A DNA stretch of 64,000 nt from Eledone cirrhosa (Eukaryota). Shown here piece after piece: positions 9,349 through 11,837 of the stretch. The stretch lies in contig OZ024741.1 in assembly GCA_964016885.1 (NCBI GenBank), positions 150,536,001-150,600,000 on the forward strand, given 5' to 3'. The notes under the pieces were generated by a model, which saw nothing but the letters and a program-made list of their open reading frames with translations, was not told where the DNA came from and ran no database searches. Each line of letters opens with the position of its first letter. Position 1 is the stretch's first letter. The position numbers and the translations under genes were made by a program.

Positions 9349-9442
<94 letters not shown>

Positions 9443-9624
9443 TAATTAAGTTAAAAATGTACATCCACATATGTATACTGAAATACTAGTATGCATATCG
9501 TATCCGCTGAACCGGTACGTACTCACGCTCTATGCAAATTAGTCTGCCCACTATTAATTTTCATAGAAAAAGCATATAACGATATGTGCTTTTACGATTC
9601 TCTAGAAAGGCCGGAGGATAGGTA

Positions 9625-9669
9625 AATGTTGCTGATGAGATGTAACAACATCGAAACTAGTCCAATATT
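9625..9669 (+). ncRNA. Minimal type I hammerhead, GUC, array copy 1
   Basis: aatgttg-CTGATGA-GATGT-aaca-ACATC-GAAAC-TA-GTC-caatatt; predicted cut after 9662. Confidence 0.9.
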
Positions 9670-10089
9670 CCTGTCTGGCTTTCTGGAGAATAGAGGAAAG
9701 GTGTTTCCTCGAAAACCAGTATGACTCTAAAAACCGGTTTGTCTGTGTGTTTACATACAGAATAGCTGAACACTCACAGTAAAGTGTCCAGTGAAAATCT
9801 CGGTACATCTACATATGTACACGTGTGTGTATTCATATGCATACTAGTATTTCAGTATACATATGTGGATGTACATTTTTAACTTAATTGTTTAAGCGTC
9901 AGCCATACAAAAGTGAGTTACAAACGAAACGAAATTTAATTTCGTTTCGTTATTTGTTTTTATCGTCTCCGCTGAACCGGTACGTACTCACGCTCTATGC
10001 AAATTAGTCTGCCCACTACTAATTTTCATAGAAAAAGCATATAACGATATGTGCTTTTACGATTCTCTAGAAAGGCCGGAGGATAGGTA

Positions 10090-10134
10090 AATGTTGCTGA
10101 TGAGATGTAACAACATCGAAACTAGTCCAATATT
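10090..10134 (+). ncRNA. Hammerhead, array copy 2
   Basis: Identical to copy 1. Confidence 0.9.
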
Positions 10135-10554
10135 CCTGTCTGGCTTTCTGGAGAATAGAGGAAAGGTGTTTCCTCGAAAACCAGTATGACTCTAAAAACC
10201 GGTTTGTCTGTGTGTTTACATACAGAATAGCTGAACACTCACAGTAAAGTGTCCAGTGAAAAACTCGGTACATCTACATATGTACACGTATGTGTATTCA
10301 TATGCATACTAGTATTTCAGTATACATATGTGGATGTACATTTTTAACTTAATTGTTTAAGCGTCAGTCATACAAAAGTGAGTTACAAACGAAACGAAAT
10401 TTAATTTCGTTTCGTTATTTGTTTTTATCGTCTCCGCTGAACCGGTACGTACTCACGCTCTATGCAAATTAGTCTGCCCACTACTAATTTTCATAGAAAA
10501 AGCATATAACGATATGTGCTTTTACGATTCTCTAGAAAGGCCGGAGGATAGGTA

Positions 10555-10599
10555 AATGTTACTGATGAGATGTAACAACATCGAAACTAGTCCAATATT
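10555..10599 (+). ncRNA. Hammerhead, array copy 3 (stem I G>A next to core)
   Basis: aatgttA-CTGATGA; otherwise identical. Confidence 0.85.
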
Positions 10600-11019
10600 C
10601 CTGTCTGGCTTTCTGGAGAATAGAGGAAAGGTGTTTCCTCGAAAACCAGTATGACTCTAAAAACCGGTTTGTCTGTGTGTTTACATACAGAATAGCTGAA
10701 CACTCACAGTAAAGTGTCCAGTGAAAAACTCGGTACATCTACATATGTACACGTGTGTGTATTCATATGCATACTAGTATTTCAGTATACATATGTGGAT
10801 GTACATTTTTAACTTAATTGTTTAAGCGTCAGTCATACAAAAGTGAGTTACAAACGAAACGAAATTTAATTTCGTTTCGTTATTTGTTTTTATCGTCTCC
10901 GCTGAACCGGTACGTACTCACGCTCTATGCAAATTAGTCTGCCCACTACTAATTTTCATAGAAAAAGCATATAACGATATGTGCTTTTACGATTCTCTAG
11001 AAAGGCCGGAGGATAGGTA

Positions 11020-11064
11020 AATGTTACTGATGAGATGTAACAACATCGAAACTAGTCCAATATT
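11020..11064 (+). ncRNA. Hammerhead, array copy 4 (stem I G>A next to core)
   Basis: Same variant as copy 3. Confidence 0.85.
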
Positions 11065-11484
11065 CCTGTCTGGCTTTCTGGAGAATAGAGGAAAGGTGTT
11101 TCCTCGAAAACCAGTATGACTCTAAAAACCGGTTTGTCTGTGTGTTTACATACAGAATAGCTGAACACTCACAGTAAAGTGTCCAGTGAAAAACTCGGTA
11201 CATCTACATATGTACACGTGTGTGTATTCATATGCATACTAGTATTTCAGTATACATATGTGGATGTACATTTTTAACTTAATTGTTTAAGCGTCAGTCA
11301 TACAAAAGTGAGTTACAAACGAAACGAAATTTAATTTCGTTTCGTTATTTGTTTTTATCGTCTCCGCTGAACCGGTACGTACTCATGCTCTATGCAAATT
11401 AGTCTGTCCACTACTAATTTTCATAGAAAAAGCATATAACGATACGTGCTTTTACGATTCTCTAGAAAGGCCGGAGGATAGGTA

Positions 11485-11529
11485 AATGTTGCTGATGAGA
11501 TGTAACAACATCGAAACTAGTCCAATATT
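11485..11529 (+). ncRNA. Hammerhead, array copy 5
   Basis: Identical to copy 1. Confidence 0.9.
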
Positions 11530-11797
11530 CCTGTCTGGCTTTCTGGAGAATAGAGGAAAGGTGTTTCCTCGAAAACCAGTATGACTCTAAAAACCGGTTT
11601 GTCTGTGTGTTTACATACAGAATAGCTGAACACTCACAGTAAAGTGTCCAGTGAAAAACTCGGTACATCTACATATGTACACGTGTGTGTATTCAGTATA
11701 CATATGTGGATGTACATTTTTAACTTAATTGTTTAAGCGTCAGTCATACAAAAGTGAGTTACAAACGAAACGAAATTTAATTTCGTTTCGTTATTTG

Positions 11798-11837
<40 letters not shown>

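Follow-up and report, generated by a model that had tools for sequence, protein, structure and literature searches.

The window, by which we mean the whole stretch of 64,000 nucleotides of Eledone cirrhosa DNA analyzed here, harbors a two-armed insertion built from a non-coding tandem repeat, and both outer ends of this insertion run into (TA)n. The left target tract (9347..9443) is common to this insertion and to an older sister-family insertion on its left, and the right target tract occupies 11802..11838. The main arm (9496..11804, plus strand) comprises 4.97 head-to-tail units of 465 bp and begins at unit position 457 and ends at unit position 459, the tailed start site; TRF scored a tandem array over the same interval with a period of 465, 5.0 copies, and 98% matches. 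Position 1 of its units falls at 9505, 9970, 10435, 10900, and 11365. The original prediction had started the array at 9442. The array is real, but that stretch takes in an inverted arm that had gone unrecognized: 9444..9498 (minus strand) is the reverse complement of unit positions 331-385 over 55 bp at 100% identity. The outer end of this short arm is the tail-less start site, and its inner end meets the main arm at an inversion junction with a 3-nt overlap (TAT, 9496..9498).

Units 3 and 4 of the main arm are identical, and unit 5 terminates at unit position 459. A long hairpin at unit positions 299-370 (9803..9874 in unit 1, plus strand) lies just upstream of the tail-less start site and has lost 19 bp in unit 5. 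The stretch that separates the arm-end sites is the "tail" (unit positions 386-459; 9890..9963 in unit 1, plus strand), which holds a 13-bp hairpin at 9923-9951. The array contains 8 substitution variants in 2.3 kb, and 7 of the 36 insertions compared contain 0, so the array, which had been called young, is indeed young but is not among the youngest. Its GC content is ~36%, and each unit has 6 to 10 stops in all six frames. No tRNA-like gene was found within the 64-kb window, and the insertion has no reverse transcriptase (RT) plus GIY-YIG open reading frame (ORF) between repeats of the sort that marks an autonomous Penelope-like element (PLE). The 465-nt monomer folds far better than its shuffles (z of −9.65, 0/100). 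We also considered rolling translation of a circle (465 = 3 x 155) and rejected it, because all frames contain stops and unit length varies from 463 to 470 across the family.

Each unit bears a type I hammerhead domain with an extended stem I, first at 9597..9691 (plus strand) and then every 465 bp. The CTGATGA cores start at 9632, 10097, 10562, 11027, and 11492, and the GUC cleavage triplets end at 9662, 10127, 10592, 11057, and 11522; this exact spacing of 465, together with the TRF count, upholds the original prediction of a 5 x 465 bp array. The first cut is predicted after 9662 and further cuts every 465, and the first of the four predicted 465-nt cut-to-cut monomers, all non-coding, would be 9663..10127 (plus strand). 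Stem II has 5 bp and an AACA loop, stem III is AC-TA-GT (the palindrome ACUAGU), and stem I combines 7 bp with a UA bulge and a long extension; the units thus possess the canonical core, the 2-bp palindromic stem III, and the long stem I that had been described for them. A G>A change at 10561 in unit 3, repeated at 11026 in unit 4 (plus strand), breaks the core-closing pair 2.1-1.1, and this is the mutation that the two units had been said to share. Rfam gave no match in the window at the gathering level; below it, Hammerhead_HH9 scored 32.6 bits (E of 4.5e-6), the gathering score being 52.

The folding energies, modeled without tertiary contacts, bear on how such a ribozyme would act. The active fold of the monomer lies 10.6 kcal/mol above the best fold, as against 4.4 kcal/mol for a double hammerhead serving two sites; the variant of units 3 and 4 would lift the latter cost to 7.6 kcal/mol. 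A lone hammerhead domain is predicted to trap its own core, with a pair probability of 0.86. Helix III of 1 to 2 bp with a palindromic loop is the hallmark of dimer-acting hammerheads, and the palindromic 2-bp stem III should favor dimer cleavage. These predicted energies fit both a stable circle and the dimer-cleavage model of PMC4209133, and they support, as a prediction, the earlier assignment of this hammerhead to the dimer-cleaving type.

The exact 33-nt hammerhead core word occurs in 1,595 copies in the 3.0-Gb genome, and exact tail/(TA)n junctions number 1,875 genome-wide, with 0 for the reversed control in both searches. Judged by its sequence, the window array belongs to a mobile element that encodes no protein and is dispersed through the genome in about two thousand copies. 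The original prediction lacked the family, the second arm with its inverted orientation, the targeting of (TA)n, and the ends of Penelope type, and these are the features that identify the element and hold most of the mechanistic information. We analyzed 140 insertions: that of the window, 35 taken from the best DNA matches, 25 taken from the first core matches listed, and 79 tail-junction picks (from 80 listed of the 1,875, L229 having been dropped as a duplicate of L228). A few alignment pieces from neighboring older copies were left out before counting, and one row of the ribozyme alignment (L178), whose coordinates were wrong, was disregarded. Unit length is 463 to 470 bp, units are 87 to 100% alike to the window unit, and the tail-picked insertions have a median of 2.1 units (n=74; five cut ones left out). 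At least two consecutive units, each with a type I hammerhead, non-coding sequence, low GC content, and dispersal over many loci are the testable features of a non-LTR retrozyme; all were found, and the element evidently is one, which makes it of a known kind with predicted cleavage. Insertions lie in (TA)n or AT-rich targets, with exceptions that include L194 and L304. Of four read-derived contig sets, two each gave one contig that is 30 longer than the unit; as a tandem array and a circle would account for this equally well, it is not counted as evidence. Single-unit variants across all 140 insertions are strand-biased (115 G>A versus 72 C>T, p 0.005), a bias that may stem from reverse-transcriptase errors during insertion.

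In the 79 insertions picked by tail alone, 1 of 757 core bases deviates from the majority, versus 1,515 of 29,476 bases elsewhere. Hammerhead position 17 is only ever C or U in these 79 insertions and is A in the sister family; the NUH rule permits C, U, and A at this position. Two compensatory swaps were seen, A-U to U-A in stem II (37 insertions) and A-U to G-C in the stem I extension (28 insertions), though the swapped insertions are related lineages and the independent events are therefore few. Stem III bases are invariant in 70 of 70 insertions, with one loop base varying in 2, and the sister family has the ACUAGU stem III as well. Such conservation indicates that the ribozyme core is under strong selection across propagating lineages.

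The ends of the arms fall at two sites in the unit, at ~385-390 (tail-less) and at ~459 (tailed). A tailed arm is paired with a tail-less arm in 102 of the 140 insertions, 13 of which rest on short arms of ~7 to 20 nt read by eye; tailed/tailed and tail-less/tail-less insertions both number 0, and the rest are one-armed (21), cut by the analyzed stretch (6), or odd (11). L045, L217, and L232 pair likewise once extended, which brings the two-armed insertions to 105 of 140. The rule also holds among the 61 insertions that were not picked by tail (45 plus L045 follow it, and 0 have ends alike), and three further two-armed insertions (C18, L312, and L313) obey it. The sister family has two end sites (346-350 and 405), as do the autonomous PLE families H1 (423-428 and 535) and H2 (518 and 595), and N1 and N2 have two ends in the same manner. 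Because the pairing is exclusive, each arm must use a different start site, as expected with two subunits on one RNA.

An inverted 5'-truncated copy with a tail at one end, the signature of EN+ PLEs, is thus present in 105 of the 140 insertions. According to PMC8557442, PLEs characteristically insert into (TA)n, carry an inverted copy, and have a tail at only one of their ends, and PMC11167929 describes a tail bounded by two internal RT start sites on the RNA and a protein, predicted to be a dimer, that cuts and extends both strands of AT-rich DNA. The end anatomy seen here is that of the Penelope "tail," which is known to mark two reverse-transcription start sites.

We therefore consider it likely that the element is a non-LTR retrozyme inserted by a borrowed Penelope-like enzyme that starts at two fixed sites on the one RNA it copies, and that this RNA was probably a circular monomer. 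In such a scheme, double hammerheads would cut tandem transcripts into 465-nt monomers, a host ligase would close these into circles, and the circles would persist because the lone hammerhead of each is folded inactive; ADAR would edit some of them. The Penelope-like enzyme, acting as a dimer, would then cleave a (TA)n tract on both strands. Each of its two subunits would prime from one of the cut DNA ends, start at its own site, and travel around the RNA over a distance set by chance. Joining the two cDNA ends head to head would yield two opposed arms of tandem units, within which unequal crossover or conversion would later reshuffle the units. More tentatively, and with somewhat less than even confidence, we propose the full form of this scheme, a double rolling-circle retrotransposition in which the two RTs of a Penelope-type dimer, primed by the two cut ends of a (TA)n tract, start ~70 nt apart on a single ADAR-edited circle and complete up to ~17 rounds each, the edits being heritable and able to found subfamilies. 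Two published observations count against the scheme: hammerhead cleavage was dispensable for PLE insertion in vitro (PMC11167929), and only one of nine frog retrozyme dimers was cleaved in a 2026 preprint (bioRxiv 10.64898/2026.07.22.740005).

What the enzyme copies can be read in part from the two arms themselves. Rare variants are common to both arms in 8 of 27 own pairs versus 7 of 702 cross pairs. Over 77 insertions, arm distance is 0.7% to the own arm versus 5.4% to others; the own arm is strictly closest in 33 of the 77, tied in 16, and not closest in 28. By this evidence, both arms of an insertion are derived from the same haplotype. The ribozyme cut site is traversed by 178 of 204 arms. 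We looked for a pile-up of arm ends at the cut site, which would denote a linear monomer template, and rejected it: the count of 13 versus 7.2 came from a window chosen afterwards, and precise junctions gave 10 of 180 versus 8.1. An apparent excess of ends at positions 1 to 15 is an artifact of alignments that split at the unit border. Because arms cross the cut site and do not pile up there, the template would be a circle or an uncut multimer and not a linear monomer.

A>G changes help to separate a circle from an uncut multimer. They make up 20 of 43 rare array-wide variants versus 52 of 607 single-unit variants, and their share of the differences from the nearest relative is 3 of 3 in L234 and 3 of 3 in L217, clustered in each, and 8 of 11 in L235. 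Sites at which A>G recurs are unit positions 28, 32-34, 37, 75, 124, and 188. In the window array the one difference from its nearest relative is likewise an A>G, at unit position 124 (9628..9628, plus strand), which is present in all five units and is the sole difference from the nearest family haplotypes. In the one assembly on which these counts rest, from which a source array may be absent, the L234 pattern has 4 matches, all in that insertion and in both of its arms, and the L235 pattern has 3, all in that insertion; the L217 pattern (69 units, 7 places) and the L187 mark (46 matches, 16 places) are not private. The A>G excess is weak whether insertions are counted (12 versus 4 T>C, p 0.08) or sites (42 versus 26, p 0.05); the counts are 39 versus 16 on the terminal branches of a tree, and 22 versus 18, no excess, on its internal branches. 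Clustered A>G in structured repeats is an ADAR mark (PMC5625713). No clear ADAR neighbor preference was found at these sites (5' G in 6 of 43 versus 24 of 146), and pairing at A>G sites (0.70 versus 0.61) is not informative. Selection could also contribute to the excess, since a paired A that becomes G can still pair with its U. The simplest reading of a private A>G cluster in every unit is that one edited monomer was copied repeatedly, which favors a circle.

The same two-ended insertion could also proceed from a long uncut read-through transcript or an oligomeric circle, with the hammerhead acting elsewhere, and we judge this unlikely, though to be taken seriously. Unprocessed RNA was the main PLE substrate in vitro (PMC11167929), and the long invariant arrays of the L217 group share a haplotype, so that any one of them may have given rise to the rest. 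Some templates were mixed: both arms of L312 alternate between two haplotypes, which a single monomeric circle cannot yield, and of 63 partly shared variants, 16 are present on either side of the inversion. Yet the private A>G clusters found in every unit of L234 and L235 need monomer amplification at some step, the variants are not significantly rank-matched between arms (12 of 356 versus 34 of 1,295, p 0.47), and an uncut template sits poorly with the apparent selection on the core in propagating lineages. On balance, our reading of these sequences is that a circle was probably the main template.

The original prediction had left two origins for the head-to-tail units, rolling reverse transcription of a circular RNA and later tandem expansion. 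L217/L299 has 7 + 12 units with 0 internal variants, and the C18 copy has 17 + 8 units with one 3-nt deletion only; no more than one variant is present in 9 of 58 arrays of at least 3 units. The youngest insertions are therefore long and near-invariant in both arms, which argues that arrays are born long. That insertions instead begin short, at around one unit, and grow by unequal crossover, as bioRxiv 10.64898/2026.07.22.740005 proposes in deriving retrozyme arrays from later expansion, seems to us quite improbable as the main route. It is at odds with these youngest copies, with the roughly two thirds of arms of either class that exceed one unit (in a sample enriched for full units), and with the fact that length does not rise with internal variation (variant density versus array length gives a rho of −0.31 over the 58 arrays of at least 3 units and −0.09 over the first 36).

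Later duplication is nonetheless real, and the idea of a short start draws on its traces: of the 63 partly shared variants, 47 do not extend beyond a single arm, their periods reach 5 units in L033 and 4 in L052, and the change shared by units 3 and 4 of the window array probably arose in this way. Four very long arms, one of them exceeding 27 kb with many variants, were not closed after 12 to 28 kb of sequence. Of the two origins, birth as a long array by reverse transcription is favored; expansion does occur, and later duplication looks to have only reshaped arrays already born long. The arm in L189, L309, and L310 (G000:C1:95642000-95669900) is more than 27 kb long with ~59 units, unclosed and rich in variants, and belongs to an older subfamily; it is apparently a retrozyme turning into satellite DNA. 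L305, an insertion of ~25 units, is invariant except for an A>G at unit position 268, which recurs with a spacing of 3 units and is carried by 6 of the 12 units in one arm.

Several insertions are joined to PLE sequence directly, with no intervening (TA)n. L219 and L239 are joined to Neptune-type elements, which we take to belong to the Neptune clade, and L230 is joined to N2. L060, and perhaps L041, are joined to an element like the Hydra-type H2, and L038 to the Hydra-type H1, which has RWK, DKT, and CxCX5C motifs as in PMC8557442. In L038 (3970-8311), a retrozyme arm is joined to a full-length Hydra-type PLE, with a short stutter of the first bases of the PLE 11 nt before the ribozyme cut site. 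The H2 terminal repeat in L060 (2166-2760, minus strand) has an apparent hammerhead in which stems II and III are both long, and in this it differs from that of the retrozyme. For L139, a further candidate join, insertion where a (TA)n tract ends accounts for the structure. The PLE joins could have arisen by template switching or by later insertion with deletion. They do not single out a helper, since four families are involved and later insertion with deletion is also possible. H1 is young (its terminal repeats are 97 to 99% alike) and has an open frame of at least 781 aa in 19 of 81 scored copies, which makes it a practical helper candidate.

These joins, and end features that are all those of autonomous PLEs, would also be expected if the unit were the terminal repeat (pLTR) of an autonomous PLE and its copies were 5'-truncated, with L038, L060, and L219 preserving the link to coding sequence. 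We hold this to be very improbable. Arms that pass one unit enter another unit and not an ORF, the joins fall at five different unit positions (106, 123, 147, 195, and 284) and involve four PLE families, and the unit matched none of 82 PLE loci, a known chimera apart. There was no match to the unit in the pLTR regions of the three families N1, H1, and H2, and no fixed join of an ORF to the repeat was found among the insertions analyzed. No autonomous element with a terminal repeat matching the unit was found either, and this, like the spread of the joins over four families, counts against the main scheme as well. Formation of the inverted arm by fold-back self-priming on antisense RNA, the rotifer Penelope model of PMC3846280, was built to explain head-to-head arms and would suit a unit rich in hairpins, but it is barely credible here, since it predicts near-coincident 5' ends (found within 30 nt in 14 of 90 junctions versus 11.6 expected), meets edit-like changes that are A>G on the sense strand and not T>C, and leaves the strict tailed/tail-less pairing unexplained.

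As the class of element is already known, its interest is in the readout of mechanism and not in the discovery of a repeat. In L1 twin priming, both cut target ends prime cDNA and generate an inversion, as we propose for the retrozyme, and the internal site at which the second primer binds varies and halts extension from the first. The retrozyme differs in that its start sites are fixed and its arms overlap in sequence and may run many units. Like the metazoan non-LTR retrozymes of PMC7229834 and bioRxiv 10.64898/2026.07.22.740005, the element consists of non-coding tandem repeats with GC below 45%, a type I hammerhead in each unit, a highly self-paired monomer, and thousands of copies in a PLE-rich host. 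Its unit of 463 to 470 bp compares with 170 to 400 nt as first reported (PMC7229834) and 51 to 972 in the preprint; those retrozymes are expressed as circles, which for the window element is a prediction. For metazoan retrozymes, the portions of these two sources covered here mention no second opposed arm, no strict pairing of end types, no insertion into (TA)n, and no marks resembling edits. With the EN+ PLEs (Poseidon of the anole in PMC11167929; Hydra, Neptune, and Naiad in PMC8557442) the element shares an inverted 5'-truncated copy, one tailed end, (TA)n targets, and a hammerhead in the repeat; unlike them it has no ORF, the whole element is the repeat, both arms are multimers, and the tail is ~70 to 74 nt as opposed to 30 to 40. 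In newt satellite 2 and axolotl retrozymes (PMC7229834 and PMC4209133), helix III is likewise short and palindromic, so that cleavage is expected to require two hammerheads; the host here is an invertebrate, and dimer action is a prediction. Most tested invertebrate retrozymes cleave well as monomers, whereas this one is predicted to act as a dimer.

Mobilization of retrozymes by PLEs has already been proposed in PMC7229834 and bioRxiv 10.64898/2026.07.22.740005. The step from retrozyme circle to genomic array is given as hypothesis only in PMC7229834, and the formation of tandem and inverted PLE insertions is named as an open question in PMC8557442. About 2,000 insertions with a short, easily aligned unit make both of these mechanistic questions countable: exclusive end pairing assigns every arm a start site of its own, the long arrays that lack variants place array formation at the time of insertion, and the A>G clusters suggest that the sense RNA served as the template. 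Our literature search, whose scope was open text excluding subscription papers and supplements, yielded no description of two-armed retrozymes, exclusive end pairing, or array-wide editing marks; the supplements (Figure S9 of PMC7229834 and those of the preprint) may show part of the anatomy. If true, a double rolling circle would provide DNA-level evidence for circles as the mobile intermediate of animal retrozymes and would explain the Penelope structure of a tail at one end plus an inverted copy. A test-tube reaction could draw on an RNA of defined length (465 nt), on the two start sites mapped here, and on candidate enzymes.

The window holds further elements beside this insertion. A sister retrozyme family (~470 bp, ~70% alike) has three insertions, at 8687-9346, 19120-19450, and 34860-35900, the first of which shares one (TA)n tract with the array under study; its hammerhead keeps the AACA loop but not the sequence of stem II, pair 10.1-11.1 is U-U, and some copies have degenerate cores. 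At 23270-26150 (minus strand) is a truncated N1 PLE in (TA)n, with RT, a CX4CX2C linker, GIY-YIG, and two stops; a minimal motif resembling a hammerhead lies near 23440, the 3' end has no tail, and a second arm is inverted and tailed. The N1 family is very large, with open frames of up to 1,261 aa. A two-armed N2 PLE, its left arm tailed and its right arm tail-less, lies at 28295-32626, and N2 and N1 proteins are 54 to 68% identical. LINE-type pieces with endonuclease, RT, and zf-RVT matches occur at 52963-56379 (plus strand) and 60761-61408 (minus strand), and a ~100-bp near-perfect inverted repeat at 34290-34495 adjoins (TA)n. Elsewhere in the genome, L197 (1772-8073) has two outward-facing retrozyme pieces around a stretch of ~5.5 kb, and flanking DNA is duplicated in inverted orientation to form both ends of this stretch. 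Finally, a piece of 23 to 25 nt with the core GGAGACAATTT is present in both orientations at 8511-8580, within (TA)n at 8437-8758, and again at 11838-11860, just right of the array; such pieces are perhaps very short ends of another element.
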